DNA from: an uncultured Haloferula sp.
GTDB taxonomy: Bacteria; Verrucomicrobiota; Verrucomicrobiia; Verrucomicrobiales; Akkermansiaceae
Assembly (NCBI GenBank): GCA_965652295.1
Contig: CBFGTS010000022.1
Coordinates: 1 to 52,981, forward strand
Direction: 5' to 3'
Length of the DNA: 52,981 nt
The translations under genes and the position numbers were made by a program. Below, in pieces: positions 31,823 to 42,970 of the stretch. The stretch's first letter is position 1. Every line of letters starts with the position of its first letter. A model generated the notes under the pieces. The model made no database searches. It was not told the DNA's origin and worked only from the letters and a program-made list of their open reading frames with translations.

Positions 31823-33202
31823 ATGGATATCCTAATCATCGACGACGAACGCTCCATCCGGATGACCACCACGATGGCGCTGGAGCACGAGGGGCACTAC
31901 GTCGAATCGGTGGACTGCGGCGAAGCAGCGATGAAGCGCCTGCGGGAAGAGAAATTCGAACTCATCTTCCTCGACCTTCGCCTCGGCGACGAAGACGGGC
32001 TGGAGATTCTGGGGCAAATTCTGGAGAAGTACCCTCGCCAGCTCGTGACCATCTTCACCGCCCACGCCTCGATTGAGACGGCGGTGAAAGCCACGCAAGC
32101 CGGAGCGTTCGACTACTTGGAAAAGCCCTTCACGCCGGACCAGCTGCGGGCGATTCTGGTGAAGGCACGCAAAGCCCTCGCCACCGAGGGAGAGGTCGTC
32201 CGCCTTCAGGAAACGGTGCGCGAATTGAAAACCGAGGCCAGTCGCAATAGTCCGCCGGTCGATTTCGCATCGGAAGACACCCGCACTGCGCAGGAGCTCG
32301 ACACGCTCTTCCGCGCCGCGGCATCCCCCGCCTCGGTGTTGATTCTCGGCGAGAGCGGCACGGGGAAAAGCGTCATCGCCCGCGAAGTCCACCACCGCAG
32401 CCATCTTCGGGAAAAACCCTTTGTCACGGTGAGCTGCCCCTCGCTGTCCCGCGAGCTGCTGGAGAGCACGCTCTTCGGTCACGTCAAAGGCTCCTTCACC
32501 GGCGCGGTCAAAGACACCTGGGGCAAGGTCCACGCCGCCGAGGGAGGCACCCTTTTTCTGGATGAGATCGGAGAACTTCCCATGGAGATCCAGCCCAAGC
32601 TCCTCCGCCTGCTTCAGGAGCGGGAGTACGAGCGTCTGGGTGAAAACAAGGTCCGGCCCTCGAATGTACGCGTGATCGCCGCCACCAACCGCGATCTCGC
32701 CGAGCACGTGGTGGCCGGAGAATTCCGAGAGGATCTCTACTACCGCCTCAATGTCATCAGCGTCCGCGTCCCACCGTTGCGCGAGCGTCCCAAGGACCTC
32801 CTCCGTTTCGCGGAGAACTACCTGATTCATTTCTCCAACCAGATCGGCCGCAAGATCCGCGGCTTCAGCCCGGAGGCGATGCGCGTGATCACAACCCACT
32901 CCTGGCCGGGCAACCTGCGCGAGCTCCGCAATGCCATCGAGCGCGCCACCATCCTGGCTCGCACCGAGTTCATCGAGCCCACCGACCTTCCCCGCCCGGA
33001 GGCGTCCGAAGCCATTGTCTCCGGGAAGGCGGCCAACAGTGGTGGCCCCGTGGTCGGAGGCGAATACAGCCTGGAGCAGCTTGAGGAAGCCCACATGCGC
33101 CGGATCCTCGAGTGGGCACCCACGCTGCAGGAGGCCGCCTCCATCCTTGGCATCGACAAGGCCACCCTCTATCGCAAGCGCAAGCGCTTCGGCATTTCCT
33201 GA
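31823..33202 (+). CDS. sigma-54-dependent response regulator (NtrC family, AlgB-like)
   Basis: REC domain, GESGTGK, ESTLFGH.KGSFTGA, LFLDEIGE, RVIAATNRDL, WPGN.REL.N and Fis HTH (AA..LGID.ATLYRKRK). Confidence 0.95.
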   Translation: MDILIIDDERSIRMTTTMALEHEGHYVESVDCGEAAMKRLREEKFELIFLDLRLGDEDGLEILGQILEKYPRQLVTIFTAHASIETAVKATQAGAFDYLEKPFTPDQLRAILVKARKALATEGEVVRLQETVRELKTEASRNSPPVDFASEDTRTAQELDTLFRAAASPASVLILGESGTGKSVIAREVHHRSHLREKPFVTVSCPSLSRELLESTLFGHVKGSFTGAVKDTWGKVHAAEGGTLFLDEIGELPMEIQPKLLRLLQEREYERLGENKVRPSNVRVIAATNRDLAEHVVAGEFREDLYYRLNVISVRVPPLRERPKDLLRFAENYLIHFSNQIGRKIRGFSPEAMRVITTHSWPGNLRELRNAIERATILARTEFIEPTDLPRPEASEAIVSGKAANSGGPVVGGEYSLEQLEEAHMRRILEWAPTLQEAASILGIDKATLYRKRKRFGIS

Positions 33203-33214
33203 CCCTCCCCCACA

Positions 33215-35044
33215 ATGCTCCGGGTTCGACTTCTCCTAGGCCTCCTCACTCTTGTCATCCTGCTCTGCGCAACGGGAGCCGCGGCCCTGATGATCCTCCA
33301 CGACGCTGACGACCGGTTTCAGACGCGGCTGAAACAGGACTATCATGCCATCGGGATCGCTCAGGGCCTGCGCTCGCACACCTCCACCCTCAACACCACC
33401 TACATCACCACGCTCGCCGGGCCGCCCCCCGAGCAGCCGCTCGACCGGGCCCTGTTCGACGAGACGAAGACCCGCCTCACCGACGACGTGAAGGCCCTGC
33501 AGCTCATCGGCATCCGCAACGAACGCTGGATGAGCACCATCAGCACCCTGCAGGACGCGCTCACCCTGTATTTCAGCGATTACGAACGGCTCCTGAGCAA
33601 TGCCGTGACCGACCGCACCGAGCGCGCCGAATTGCTGCGGACCTTCGGAGCCCACACCCAGCGGATCAACGACCTCGGAACGAGCATCATCCACCTCGCC
33701 GAGGAGCGGCTTTTCGGTGCGAGCGAAGCCCTTGCGCAGGAGTCGGGAAAGAACACCGTCTTCATCGCCACCCTGGTCGTACTCGGCACCGCCATCGCCG
33801 TGCTGATCTACTTCCAGCTCCTCCGCCATCTCGTCGAGCCCGTCACCGGTCTGTGCGACTCGATGGAGCAGGTCACCATGGGAAATTTCGAACTCACCCT
33901 GCCCACGCCAACGAGCGGGAGCGAGTTCAGCTCACTCGTCCGGAGCTTCAACTCGATGGCGGAGGAGCTGCGCGTCCGCCGCCGCGAAACCGACGAGCGC
34001 CTGTTCAAGAACAACCTCGTCAACCGCGCACTCCTCTCCGCGATTCCCTCGCCCGTCTACGTCCTCGACACCCATGGCAAGACCGTGCAGCTCAATCCCG
34101 CCGCGGAGGATCTCAACGAGGCGCTCGGTCTCGGCACACGCCTGCCCGGGAAGGTGCTCCGGCTCTTCCACAACTGCCAGGACCAGGGAGCCCACCACCT
34201 GCCGGAGGATCCGCGCGAGGCACTGCTCTTCCGGATCGAGGAAACGGAGCACTACTATCTCCCCCGTATCTTCCGTTTCGCCGCCGGCCAGGGCGAGGGA
34301 AACACCTACTCGGGATGGGCCGTGCTGCTGCACGACGTCACCCGCATCCGCTGGCTCGACGACATGAAGACGAACATGTTGTCCACCGTCAGTCACGAGA
34401 TCAAGACGCCGCTCACCGGCATCCGGATGGTCCTGCACCTGCTTCTGGAAGAGGAAACCGGCCAGCTTACCGACATGCAGCGGACGATGCTCTCCTCCGC
34501 CAACGATGACTGCGAGCGACTGCTCACCACCCTCAACACCTTGCTCGACATCTCCCGCGCGGAAAGCGGCTCCACCCATCTCGATCTGCGTCCCATTTCC
34601 CTGACCGACATCGCCACCCACAGCGCCGGCTTGTTCGAAAGCAAGGCCGCCTCATCGCGCGTATCCATCCGGATCGATGCCGAGGAGAACCTCCCCTTCG
34701 TCATGGCGGACCCCATGAGGATCAGCGAAGTCGTGCACAATCTCATCTCCAACGCCCTCAAGCACAGCCCGTCCGGAGGCAGCATCGACGTCCGGCTCAC
34801 GCGTTCCGGTGCGGATTTTGTTCGGCTTTCCGTACTGGACGACGGCCCCGGCGTGCCCGAGGAGTGCGAGGACCGCATCTTCGAGCGGTTCTACCGCGCC
34901 CCCGACCAAGGCACCGATGGCATCGGCCTCGGACTGTTCATTTCCCGCGAGATCATGCGCGCCCACGAGGGCCGCATCGGCCTCACCGAAAAATCACCCA
35001 AGAACCCAAGAACCGAATTCTTCATCGATGTCCCGAATGCCTGA
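33215..35044 (+). CDS. sensor histidine kinase (2 TM, HAMP, PAS-like, HisKA, HATPase; KinB-like)
   Basis: SHEIKTPLT H-box, NLISNALK, D.GPG, FERFY, G.GLGL. Confidence 0.93.
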   Translation: MLRVRLLLGLLTLVILLCATGAAALMILHDADDRFQTRLKQDYHAIGIAQGLRSHTSTLNTTYITTLAGPPPEQPLDRALFDETKTRLTDDVKALQLIGIRNERWMSTISTLQDALTLYFSDYERLLSNAVTDRTERAELLRTFGAHTQRINDLGTSIIHLAEERLFGASEALAQESGKNTVFIATLVVLGTAIAVLIYFQLLRHLVEPVTGLCDSMEQVTMGNFELTLPTPTSGSEFSSLVRSFNSMAEELRVRRRETDERLFKNNLVNRALLSAIPSPVYVLDTHGKTVQLNPAAEDLNEALGLGTRLPGKVLRLFHNCQDQGAHHLPEDPREALLFRIEETEHYYLPRIFRFAAGQGEGNTYSGWAVLLHDVTRIRWLDDMKTNMLSTVSHEIKTPLTGIRMVLHLLLEEETGQLTDMQRTMLSSANDDCERLLTTLNTLLDISRAESGSTHLDLRPISLTDIATHSAGLFESKAASSRVSIRIDAEENLPFVMADPMRISEVVHNLISNALKHSPSGGSIDVRLTRSGADFVRLSVLDDGPGVPEECEDRIFERFYRAPDQGTDGIGLGLFISREIMRAHEGRIGLTEKSPKNPRTEFFIDVPNA

Positions 35045-39367: not shown

Positions 39368-39877
39368 ATGGAAAACTTCGCTGAAATCATCAAACACCCC
39401 TTCGTCTGGGGCTTGGCACTCGGTCTGGTGCTGGCCTTCTTTGCGTGGAAATCCGGCCTCTCCACCAAACTCCGGCTTTCCCGCGATATCCGCCGCCTGG
39501 AGAACGAGCTGCGAGAGCTGCAGGGACACTTGAACACCCAGCTCAAAATCAACGCCCAAGGAAACCAAGCCCTTCAGGACGAACTCAAGGTGCTGCGGGA
39601 GCAGAATGAAAACCTGAGGATTTCCAACGCCACGCTCCAAACGAAGCCAGGACGGGCGGAAGTGAAGCAGTACCAGATCATGGAGGCCGCCGTCCGGCAG
39701 ATGCGGGAGCAGGCACCGGGTTTCGCACCGGCATGGGAAAAGGCGCTGCGCGACGCGGAAAGCGACTTCGAAGCCGCCGAAAACGGCATCCGGCGGCTGG
39801 TCCGCCGGGTGATCCCCTCGATCGGCTATCAAAGCGGATCGTCCCCCTCAGCAGAAGACAAGGACTCGTCCGACTGA
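39368..39877 (+). CDS. hypothetical protein with N-terminal TM segment and coiled coil
   Basis: HPFVWGL.LGL, heptad region, APGFAPAWE.AL. Confidence 0.75.
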   Translation: MENFAEIIKHPFVWGLALGLVLAFFAWKSGLSTKLRLSRDIRRLENELRELQGHLNTQLKINAQGNQALQDELKVLREQNENLRISNATLQTKPGRAEVKQYQIMEAAVRQMREQAPGFAPAWEKALRDAESDFEAAENGIRRLVRRVIPSIGYQSGSSPSAEDKDSSD

Positions 39878-40005
39878 GAGCCCGGAGAAAGCCGCCCATC
39901 CTCGCGGCTCCACTCCCCCGTTTTCCGCACCCTACCAGCCGCCTGGAATGAAAGAAGCCGCGATGGAAAACCATCGCGGCTTGGAGAATCCGGCGCAAAC
40001 CCGCT

Positions 40006-40863
40006 TCAGCCTGCCACCGCACCTTCGACCGGCTTCGGCAGCGGAACTTCCTTCCGGCGCAGCGCCTTGCGCATCTTGGTCAGGGCGACGTTCTGGAGCT
40101 GGCGGATCCGCTCACGGGTGACCCCGAACTCGCGGCCGACTTCTTCCAGAGTCATCGGCTTTTTGCCATTGAGCCCGAATCGTTCATCGATGATCCGACG
40201 CTCCCGCTGATCAAGAATCGCCAGCAAATCGTCCAGCTCGCCATGAAGGTTCTTGTCGGTCAGCGCGTCGAGCGGGTTCTCGGCGCGATCGTCGCCAATG
40301 ATTTCGCCATACTGCGTGGCCTCGCCTTCATTGACCGGCGCGTCGAGCGAGGTCGGCCGTTGGGATGCCTGCTTGAGCATCGCCAACTTCCGGCGTGGCA
40401 GCCCGATTTCGTCGGCCAATTCCTCGTCGGTGGGCTCACGACCCAGCACCTCGGCGAGCATCGTCGAAATCCGGCGCATTTTGGCGATCTTGTCCACCAT
40501 GTGCACGGGCAGGCGGATCGTCTTGCTCTGGTTCGCCAACGCACGCTTGATCGACTGTTTGATCCACCACGCGGCGTACGTCGAGAGCTTGCCGCCCTTG
40601 TTCGGATCGAAGCGCTCGACCGCCTTCATCAGACCGATGTTTCCTTCGGAAATCAGATCGGAGAGAGGCAATCCGTAGCCGGCGTAGTCTTGTGCGATTT
40701 TTACCACCAGCCGCAGGTTGGCGTTGATCATGTGGGTCCGCGCCTGCTTGTCGCCCCGCTTGATGCGGGCGGCCAGCTCCACCTCCTCATCCGGAGTCAG
40801 CAGAGGGGTTTTCGAAATTTCGCGCAGATAAAGCTTCAGATTTGAGTCACTTTCCATGGCCAT
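40006..40863 (-). CDS. sigma-70 family sigma factor lacking region 1.1 (group 2, RpoS-like)
   Basis: YLREI...PLLT..EE, ANLRLVV.IA, DLI.EGN.GL.KAVERFDP, STYA.WWI.Q.I.RA, TIRLPVH, TLEEVG..FGVTRERIRQ; 285 aa; alternative start 40857. Confidence 0.93.
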   Translation of the reverse strand: MAMESDSNLKLYLREISKTPLLTPDEEVELAARIKRGDKQARTHMINANLRLVVKIAQDYAGYGLPLSDLISEGNIGLMKAVERFDPNKGGKLSTYAAWWIKQSIKRALANQSKTIRLPVHMVDKIAKMRRISTMLAEVLGREPTDEELADEIGLPRRKLAMLKQASQRPTSLDAPVNEGEATQYGEIIGDDRAENPLDALTDKNLHGELDDLLAILDQRERRIIDERFGLNGKKPMTLEEVGREFGVTRERIRQLQNVALTKMRKALRRKEVPLPKPVEGAVAG

Positions 40864-41006
40864 TTTTGAGGTTCAGGTTGAAATGCTGAAGAGAGGGTTT
40901 CTATTGGTGAAACGCTACGGAGGCCGGATTTATTCCAAAAATCAGCTCCGTTTTTGTAACTACATTGGAGTGACTAACGTGACCGTCCATGGCTGTCGAA
41001 AACGGC

Positions 41007-41022
41007 AGCAATGCCCGTGCCG
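41007..41022 (-). promoter_or_regulatory. sigma-54 (-24/-12) promoter of the sigma factor gene
   Basis: Minus strand CGGCACG-GGCA-TTGCT, essentially consensus. Confidence 0.8.
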
Positions 41023-41062
41023 CACGGTGTGATGATCGAGCTGTGGGCCCGACCGCTTTGTT

Positions 41063-41075
41063 TATCAATGGATTG
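41063..41075 (+). promoter_or_regulatory. IHF-type binding site
   Basis: TATCAA-TGGA-TTG, exact match to WATCAANNNNTTR. Confidence 0.65.
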
Positions 41076-41124
41076 CCCGGTTCCACGACTTCGCGACCGG
41101 CTAACCATCAGCGTGCCAACCCGT

Positions 41125-41167
41125 CGCGGTGCGGCAATTTGCACCGCGCAATGTGCAATGATGACAC
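41125..41167. promoter_or_regulatory. putative upstream activator sequence
   Basis: CGCGGTGC-N8-GCACCGCG overlapping TGCAC-N8-GTGCA, 105-145 bp upstream of the -24 element. Confidence 0.55.
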
Positions 41168-41260
41168 GTCCGCGGCCGAAAGTTGGCCCTGCGCCTCGAT
41201 TTCCTTCCTTCCCTCCGAAAGATCCGCTTCCTTCGTTGCGAACGTTAAGGGAATCGTATC

Positions 41261-42970
41261 GTGCTGGATCTCCAAGAAGTCTGCTTTTCAATCACCAAGG
41301 ACGGGGAACCGGTACATTTGGTGGACCACGTCTCCGTCCGCGTCCCGAAAGGCCATTTCATGGCGATCGTCGGGCCCTCCGGCTGTGGTAAAACGACGCT
41401 GCTGCGCACCATCGCCGGGCTGAATCCCGAGTCGGCCGGCGCGCTCTTCTGGGAAGGAAGGAACCTGTCCGAGGAGAAGGATTTCGACCCGTCCGAGATC
41501 GGCTACGTCCCCCAGTTCTCCATCGCCTACGAACCGCTTACCGTCGATGAGTCGATTGAGGCCGCCACGCGCCTGCGGGTGCGCACCGGCGATGCCGGCG
41601 AACTCGACCAGCGCATCGACCGGGTTCTGGAGGAAACCGGCCTCACCGCCATCGCCGATCGTCACGTGCGGGTGCTTTCCGGCGGCCAGAAGCGACGGCT
41701 GGGGCTGGCGATGGAGCTGGTCTCGGACCCGAAACTGCTGCTTTGCGATGAGGTCACCAGCGGCCTGGACCCGCGCTCCGAGCGGGAGGTGGTCCGCCTG
41801 CTGCACGACCTTTCGCGGCGCGATGGACGGATCGTGCTTTCCGTCACTCACTCGCTCGCCCATCTGGAACTCTATGATTCCATCCTGGTGCTCCACGAAG
41901 GACGGGTTGCTTATCACGGCCCACCGGGGCATCTGACCCATTATTTTTCCGTCGCGGATACCGAGGAAGTTTATCCCAAGCTCGCCACCCAACCCAGCGA
42001 GCGTTGGCTCAGCTCGTGGATGAAACACCGGGACGCCTACGAGGAAAAAATGATCGCCGCCTCGCCGGACGAGCATCCTCCGGAGGAAGGGCCGGAGGCG
42101 CCGGTCGCGGTGCGGGCACCGGGCTTCCTCACCCAGCTCGGCACTCTGCTTTCACGCCGCTGGCGGATCTTTTTCCGCGACCGAGGGCAGATCTTCCTCC
42201 AACTCGCGATCATTCTTTGTTTCCCGATTCTCGTCACCCTCTTCTCTGACAAGGCGGAGGGGCCCATCGCCAGTCTTTCGGACTCACGCCAGGAAAGCAT
42301 CCAGGCCGAATTGCAGGAGCAACGGATGGTCCGCCAGGAACAGGTAAAGGTCGGTTCGGCGGTCAGCGGGATCATCATGTTCCAGGTGATCCTTCTCTCC
42401 CTGATGGGCTCGAACAACTCGGCACGGGAGATCGCCGGCGAGCGGAACATCTTCGAGAAGGAGAAATTCGGTGGCCTCCGGCCTTCGGCCTATCTGACCA
42501 GCAAGGTCATTTTCCTCGGAGCCTTGGTGCTGGTGCAATCCGTGTGGATGGCGGCATTCGTGAATTTCTTCGGCGGGTTCCGCGGGGATTTCGGCACGCA
42601 CCTGCTGTTTCTCCTGCTGGTCAACGCCGCCATGACCGCGGTGTGCCTCGCCATCTCGGCGCTGATGAAAACCGCCGAGCAGGCGTCGTTGCTTTCCATC
42701 TACCTGGTTGGCTTCCAGCTTCCGCTTTCCGGCGCGGTGCTGGCGCTGCCGGAGCACATCGAGAAATTCACCCGGCCGTTCATTTCCGCCTACTGGTCAT
42801 GGTCGGGCAGCGTCAGCGCGCTCGATGGAAAAGTGCTGAACGCCGTCAAGTCCGTGATCGACACCTCGCTCTCCGGCCGGGAATCCTGCCTTTTCACGCT
42901 GGGGCTTCACGTTCTGGCAGGTCTGCTCGCCGCCTGGATCGGCACGCGCCGCCATCACTGGCAACATTGA
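41261..42970 (+). CDS. ABC transporter, fused NBD-TMD (ABCG/ABC-2 type)
   Basis: GPSGCGKTT, GYVPQ, LSGGQKRR, DE.TSGLDP, VTH; then SAREIA.ER.IF..E and about 6 TM segments. Confidence 0.9.
   Translation: MLDLQEVCFSITKDGEPVHLVDHVSVRVPKGHFMAIVGPSGCGKTTLLRTIAGLNPESAGALFWEGRNLSEEKDFDPSEIGYVPQFSIAYEPLTVDESIEAATRLRVRTGDAGELDQRIDRVLEETGLTAIADRHVRVLSGGQKRRLGLAMELVSDPKLLLCDEVTSGLDPRSEREVVRLLHDLSRRDGRIVLSVTHSLAHLELYDSILVLHEGRVAYHGPPGHLTHYFSVADTEEVYPKLATQPSERWLSSWMKHRDAYEEKMIAASPDEHPPEEGPEAPVAVRAPGFLTQLGTLLSRRWRIFFRDRGQIFLQLAIILCFPILVTLFSDKAEGPIASLSDSRQESIQAELQEQRMVRQEQVKVGSAVSGIIMFQVILLSLMGSNNSAREIAGERNIFEKEKFGGLRPSAYLTSKVIFLGALVLVQSVWMAAFVNFFGGFRGDFGTHLLFLLLVNAAMTAVCLAISALMKTAEQASLLSIYLVGFQLPLSGAVLALPEHIEKFTRPFISAYWSWSGSVSALDGKVLNAVKSVIDTSLSGRESCLFTLGLHVLAGLLAAWIGTRRHHWQH

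Follow-up and report, generated by a model that had tools for sequence, protein, structure and literature searches.

The window, a 52,981-nt stretch of DNA from an uncultured Haloferula sp., carries on its reverse strand a sigma-70 gene (40006–40863) whose 285-aa product is group-2-like and belongs to a Verrucomicrobiota lineage. The initial annotation had described a sigma-70 paralog without region 1.1, and Pfam searches agree, detecting regions 1.2, 2, 3, and 4. This domain content, together with a separate long RpoD encoded in the same genome, matches the features of group 2 sigma-70 factors; the long RpoD is the only other group 1/2 sigma that the genome encodes. The top named match of the protein is from Haloferula sargassicola (97%), and the proteins of its relatives are annotated as RpoD/SigA-family. 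The gene is common across the class; it was not found in genus g3, either in one search (12/12 genomes) or in another (16/16). Its genomic neighbors are not conserved, with the adjacent ABC transporter gene matched in 10 of 110 loci and the other two neighbors in 2 of 110. A 12-bp terminator-like hairpin (39955–39982, reverse strand), of a kind whose number in the region is at chance level, lies directly 3′ of the stop codon, and the gene is likely monocistronic.

The initial annotation had also labeled the protein RpoS-like, and here our results disagree. It scores below the cut-off of both RpoS models (310.6 against 378.7 for TIGR02394; 297.9 against 394 for PRK05657). The position of E. coli RpoS K173, a residue in region 3.0 that we take to be an RpoS hallmark, is occupied by D in 175 of 178 homologs, and the position of RpoD T440 by K in 177 of 178, which predicts an altered −10 preference. 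In a FastTree phylogeny of 155 sequences (midpoint root), the homologs form a separate clade, with E. coli RpoS on the RpoD side. Searches of the PDB returned SigA and SigB as the best matches, not RpoS. The likeness to RpoS consists of the best NCBIfam E-value, which goes to rpoS_proteo, and of a few residues (FDP in region 2.3, the L in RLP, and a Q in region 4.2). We also rejected an assignment to RpoH (TIGR02392, 185.7 against a cut-off of 323.1).

Upstream of the gene, the −24/−12 match reported by the initial annotation, CGGCACGGGCATTGCT, is present exactly at 41022–41007 on the reverse strand. In this putative sigma-54 promoter (41007–41022), the GG lies at 41021–41020 (−25/−24) and the GC at 41009–41008 (−13/−12), which predicts a transcription start at 40996. 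A sigma-54 match with at most one mismatch was also found in 71 of 100 shuffles of the window and is, alone, not above chance. Since single motifs in the window are at chance level, the support for the promoter comes from conservation. Across 105 homologous sigma loci with 600 bp of upstream sequence, the pattern GG[ACT]A[CT]-N6-TGC, which was relaxed after inspection of the loci, occurs 70–200 nt upstream in 43 of the 53 loci with at least 80% protein identity (reverse strand, 0; shuffles, 0.5), in two of the 13 at 75%–80% identity, and in four of the 39 below 75%. Two positions outside the pattern, G at −20 and T at −11, are also kept (34/46 each). The strict form YGGCAY-N5-TTGC was correctly placed in just four of 110 loci and is thus too strict for this lineage. 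A second sigma-54-like string, TGGCACG near 41118, was rejected: it is a half-site of the first activator site described below and is absent in the closest relative.

The initial annotation had named conservation of the motif in orthologs and the presence of rpoN in the genome as checks of its proposal, and both bear out the promoter: the −24/−12 core is kept in the close loci counted above, and one rpoN was found. Among family genomes, 119 of 121 have rpoN. A consensus scan of 39800–41300 found no sigma-70 consensus, and the 5′ leader of the sigma gene folds no better than shuffles (z = −1.07). The RNA matches were small-share contigs of mixed soil metatranscriptomes; among those listed, two, each from another study, stop at 40875, and 40920–41324 is covered by none. 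Such contigs cannot show a transcription start and so speak neither for nor against the promoter.

A de novo motif search of the upstream regions recovered a 17-bp palindrome, tGnGnCA-N3-TGnCnCa, with an EM score of 255 versus 25 on shuffles. Three sites of the form TGNGNCA-N3-TGNCNCA stand in the window, and we consider them candidate activator sites: site 1 at 41112–41128 (center −124; 8.0 bits, 9.6 bits with a dnaK-trained model), site 2 at 41130–41146 (center −142; 12.8 and 5.3 bits), and site 3 at 41152–41168 (center −164; 13.3 and 11.2 bits). All three centers fall in the range of activator sites, ∼80–170 bp upstream, and the closest relative has site 1 at the same position (6.6 bits). 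The TGCAC-containing palindromes that the initial annotation had placed at 41125–41167 do correspond to two 17-bp sites (41130–41146 and 41152–41168), which are really part of a three-site array with 41112–41128.

Between promoter and enhancer, an exact match to the IHF consensus, TATCAATGGATTG, lies at 41063–41075 (−67 to −79) and is a candidate DNA-bending site. This match had been reported on the strand of the gene; its position stands, and its strand does not, as it reads on the forward strand and is inverted relative to the gene. An exact match also occurred in 28 of 100 shuffles of the window, which alone is not above chance. The closest relative has an exact match in the same place. Among the 58 positive loci, the consensus lies between promoter and enhancer as an exact match in seven and with at most one mismatch in 24 (shuffles, 0.3 and 4.0), usually at −54 in forward orientation, as opposed to the inverted match at −67 to −79 of the window. 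Of the IHF/HU family (PF00216), the genome encodes two proteins, neither of which reaches the IHF or HU cut-offs, and a clear IHF alpha/beta pair was not found among its proteins. The IHF site is only partly supported. Judged by these alignments and counts, a conserved, predicted sigma-54 promoter with a defined enhancer precedes this lineage-specific, group-2-like sigma gene.

Nearer to the gene than the sigma-54 promoter, we noted a promoter-like element that the initial annotation had missed, GGAAT-N17-CGTT (40911–40936, reverse strand), with a predicted start near 40904. We take it to resemble the promoters of ECF sigmas. The corresponding pattern GAAY-N16/18-CGYT occurs in 44 of 57 sigma loci with at least 80% identity (reverse strand, 1; shuffles, 1.4). 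Between both promoters lies a TGT-N4-ACA palindrome (40955–40964, reverse strand), the best such site of the genome, found in 27 of the same 57 loci versus 2.3 in shuffles. Genome scans with the two elements yielded no coherent regulon. Lineages that have no sigma-54 promoter likewise conserve both. In a Luteolibacter-like subclade (L004, L007, L017, L097, and L104), another gene ends close upstream of the sigma gene; the sigma-54 promoter is lost there, GGAATAA is kept, and most members have a CGCT-type −10.

We scored the wider phylum with the dnaK-trained models at a threshold of 16 (shuffles: 99th percentile 12.9, maximum 24.7). Among 176 sigma loci, which are kin and include three identical pairs counted twice, 58 had the full layout of promoter and palindrome, 26 had a sigma-54-like site only, and 92 had neither. 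The full layout was present in 10 of 12 loci of the genus itself (g1), in six of 10 in g5, and in all loci of g12 and g14 (4/4 each); none was found in g11 (0/3), g15 (0/5), f5 (0/11), or f8 (0/4). In family f6 it was detected in eight of 14 loci, with a degenerate −12 box. Some of the layout-negative loci may be paralogs. Because the ECF-type element is equally conserved and the full layout is found in just these 58 loci of the phylum, sigma-54 is probably not the sole input of the sigma gene; it is likely one of at least two, to go by the upstream elements.

Some of these lineages show variants of the layout. Several f6 orthologs (L184–L186, L188, L192, L196, and L201) are N-terminally extended; their palindromes are strong, but their −12 box (TGGAAC-N6-NGCT) is degenerate, as it also is in Opitutaceae-like loci. 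Prosthecobacter-like orthologs (L048, L050, L051, L053, and L180) have TGGCA-N7-TGCT ∼100–125 nt upstream without the palindrome, and another activator possibly acts on them.

The same two elements stand before chaperone genes. Models trained on the sigma loci ranked dnaK second in a whole-genome scan. Both elements were present at all 30 dnaK loci from the genus, and a sigma-54 promoter with the palindrome precedes dnaK in 83 of 89 loci, drawn from the genus, the family, the class, and two genomes of other classes, versus 0 of 89 coding controls. With dnaK-trained models, the three best-ranked among 1391 candidate sites of the genome were dnaK, the sigma gene of the window in second place, and an Hsp20 gene; these models had started from the sigma-trained ones, which makes the two tests partly dependent on each other. 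The centers of the dnaK sites cluster near −111, −122, −134, −145, and −155, approximately one helical turn apart.

A scan of 10 whole genomes with the exact pattern gave 10 matches (six dnaK, groES, a ClpB-type gene, an Hsp20 gene, and one other AAA ATPase) and two control matches; the exact patterns missed the sigma promoters of three genomes (G055, G057, and G085). A looser, longer-spaced pattern matched two dnaK and three unrelated sites in five genomes. In the genome of the window (G000), the dnaK to groEL region (C14:99610, L144) has a sigma-54 promoter with tandem palindromes, and the Hsp20 gene (C4:189595, L393), third in the genome, has one with two palindromes. In this genome, clpB, grpE, and dnaJ have no such palindrome. 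Further sigma-54-like sites lack the palindrome and stand before what we take to be rpoN itself, a P-II gene, clpX, tpiA, and a Ku-like gene; before a presumed ferritin-like gene, such a site is accompanied by a weak palindrome (these six at C11:94179, C19:47116, C7:116138, C11:103566, C11:115909, and C10:9189).

The two textbook regulators of heat shock did not turn up in the genomes searched. HrcA was found in none of 121 class genomes, RpoH above its cut-off in none of 101, and a regular expression for CIRCE had no match in the genome of the window and one match in 59 dnaK loci. Sequence comparison across genomes thus establishes the predicted promoter core and the palindromes, both of which recur at dnaK, Hsp20, groES, and clpB; it also shows that HrcA and RpoH are lacking within the sets searched.

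We then considered which protein may bind the palindromes. Three full bEBPs are encoded in the genome, on contigs C6, C9, and C22, each with a GAFTGA-type loop and an HTH-like end. The C9 protein is an AtoC-like bEBP of REC-AAA-HTH architecture (about 106274–107692) whose gene adjoins that of a PAS histidine kinase (about 105064–106230) with no obvious membrane anchor. The strongest palindrome of the genome (C9:104951–104967, L146) lies ∼100 bp before this kinase–bEBP operon. It falls within the coding part of cutA, a divergent gene, has no sigma-54 site next to it, and is likely autoregulatory. In 26 of 30 loci, a palindrome of 15–20 bits stands upstream of the kinase or the bEBP gene, and three of the remaining four are without upstream DNA. 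Where the site overlaps cutA, rare codons are kept (CGA in 19/20, ATT in 20/20, and GCG in 20/20, versus a genome usage of 6%, 12%, and 34%). In a wider set, the palindrome precedes the kinase in seven of eight loci of the same order and in 0 of 22 of other orders.

Small genomes were informative about the activator. Four of the five tested (G002, G005, G092, and G223) encode a single PF00158 protein, and these lone bEBPs share 56%–61% identity with the C9 protein versus 35%–39% with the other two. Both elements are present at dnaK in the three of these genomes whose dnaK was fetched (G002, G005, and G223). A match to the C9 bEBP at E 1e-117 or better was found in 120 of 121 family genomes, and the PAS kinase in all 35 genomes, including one of 0.9 Mb; the recognition helix of the bEBP, GISRRTLQRKL, is almost invariant. 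A search for kinase homologs returned close relatives only, and in the Atlas, Spirochaetota clusters are among the nearest non-Verrucomicrobiota look-alikes, which we regard as a lead only. The 0.9-Mb genome (G223; L251, L303, and L371) is without the sigma gene but retains the dnaK enhancer along with the kinase and one bEBP, which suggests that the core circuit is hard to lose; its kinase and bEBP genes are ∼30 kb apart. The window itself encodes, at 31823–35044, a GSFTGA-bearing bEBP and, after it, a membrane kinase, presumably an AlgB/KinB-like pair; this bEBP is not a likely activator of the sigma promoter.

Since the same promoter and palindromes stand at sigma and dnaK, one two-component activator likely switches on both. 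Our main reading, to which we assign a probability of roughly 0.7, is that the sigma gene, with its conserved sigma-54 promoter and three dnaK-type palindromes, is co-activated with chaperone genes by a single AtoC-like two-component activator. The PAS histidine kinase on C9 would phosphorylate the adjoining REC-AAA-HTH protein, which would then bind the sites at −124, −142, and −164. From there, the bound activator would loop to the sigma-54 holoenzyme, possibly aided by an IHF/HU-type bend, and the promoter would open near 40996. The sigma factor may then drive a second tier of genes, with the ECF-type promoter nearer the gene as a putative second input. The trigger may be heat or unfolded protein, a suggestion derived solely from the targets.

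A wider claim builds on the same elements and is, in our view, doubtful as it stands. Heat shock in Verrucomicrobia would be a two-tier circuit without RpoH or HrcA, in which a near-universal PAS kinase and bEBP drive chaperones through sigma-54 and a lineage-specific sigma serves tier two, the kinase–activator pair being the counterpart of Borrelia Hk2-Rrp2. If that counterpart were real, the Lyme cascade would be what is left, in derived form, of an ancient proteostasis circuit.

Among the rivals to co-activation with the chaperone genes, the one that fares best holds that the sigma-54 promoter is real but minor, with the main drive supplied by the ECF-type promoter downstream of it, or by one of sigma-70 type, as in enterobacterial rpoH, and with no functional cascade. 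The conserved ECF-type element speaks for it, as it is kept in eight of the 13 close loci without the sigma-54 layout, and the genome encodes ∼32 other ECF-type sigmas above the cut-off. There is also a precedent in the part of the Salmonella literature available to us, where rpoH has a sigma-54 site yet is not rpoN-dependent in reporters (PMC3844500). We nevertheless find it unlikely: several genera retain the three activator sites along with the core, and the sigma promoter ranks second in the genome, which would be costly upkeep for a negligible promoter.

The dedicated, Borrelia-type RpoN-to-RpoS cascade that the initial annotation had proposed, serving stationary-phase or general-stress genes, now appears quite improbable. 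In its favor are the missing region 1.1, the rpoS_proteo E-value, and the few RpoS-like residues noted above, as well as a PAS kinase and bEBP whose architecture resembles Hk2-Rrp2 as outlined in part of PMC7649798. Against it stand the scores below the RpoS cut-offs, the D at the K173 position, the separate clade, and the SigA and SigB matches in the PDB; Borrelia rpoS, moreover, requires just a minimal −24/−12 promoter, according to the accessible portion of PMC11109971. The picture of a dedicated cascade fails because the core targets of the enhancer appear to be chaperones: it is common to dnaK, Hsp20, groES, and clpB, including in a lineage without the sigma gene.

It is more improbable still that the palindromes are bound by a protein other than the C9 activator, be it the NtrC-like bEBP of C6, the AlgB-like bEBP of C22, or a regulator that is not a bEBP. 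All three activators do have the loop and the HTH-like end, and the site upstream of the C9 operon is in many cases located within cutA. Yet genomes with the C9 ortholog as their sole bEBP keep both elements at dnaK, the site precedes the operon also where cutA is absent, and synonymous codons under it are constrained. Finally, the reading that the elements are chance matches, or belong to the divergent ABC transporter gene, from whose start the sites are 90–150 bp away, agrees with the chance level of single matches in the window and is largely refuted by the conservation and ABC-gene counts, as the elements travel with the sigma gene and not with its neighbor.

The most plausible reading of the sigma gene is therefore that it forms one branch of a sigma-54 chaperone regulon and is not part of an RpoS cascade. 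To our knowledge, few sigma-54-to-sigma-70 cascades have a named enhancer. With the proposal, chaperone control gains an activator, a DNA site, and a target set that can be tested, in a class whose searched genomes have neither HrcA nor RpoH; the small-genome lineage g3 is covered as well. It further offers a first handle on a conserved, unstudied clade of Verrucomicrobia sigma factors by placing it under the same putative switch as dnaK. A literature search that covered subscription journals thinly turned up nothing on the promoter, the sigma factor, or the activator in Verrucomicrobia; aRpoNDB could bear on the point.

Several known systems share parts of this arrangement. In Borrelia burgdorferi, the Hk2-Rrp2-RpoN-RpoS pathway likewise has a sigma-54 promoter before an alternative sigma-70 gene and a receiver-activation-HTH activator encoded beside a PAS kinase; in the sections of these reports at hand, no sigma-54 target other than rpoS is known, and the minimal promoter is enough (PMC7649798, PMC11109971). 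Unlike in Borrelia, the locus described here has conserved upstream sites, chaperones as its probable main targets, and a sigma factor outside the RpoS family. Flavobacterium psychrophilum comes close on the side of the targets, with mapped sigma-54 (SM4) promoters at groES-groEL, dnaK, clpB, and other quality-control genes; the available part of that report assigns no activator or site (three PF00158 proteins are candidates) and lists no sigma gene (PMC9723704). For the locus described here, by contrast, we can name a site, a candidate activator, and a sigma-70 target, and the start is only predicted.

A similar target set was predicted for a cluster in Planctomycetota and Bacteroidota, in which GroEL, GroES, IbpA, GrpE, DnaJ, and DnaK are enriched under sigma-54 (PMC12316311). 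The same source, as far as its accessible text goes, associates COG0568 sigmas in general with sigma-54; it does not mention Verrucomicrobiota in connection with the chaperone cluster, and neither COG0568 nor COG0443 occurs in the 11 of its supplements that were term-searched. Enterobacterial rpoH, as portrayed in the portion of PMC3844500 consulted, is likewise a stress-sigma gene with a sigma-54 site and further promoters. There, RpoH drives the chaperones (PMC3844500), whereas here the protein is not RpoH, and the chaperones and the sigma factor appear to be parallel targets.
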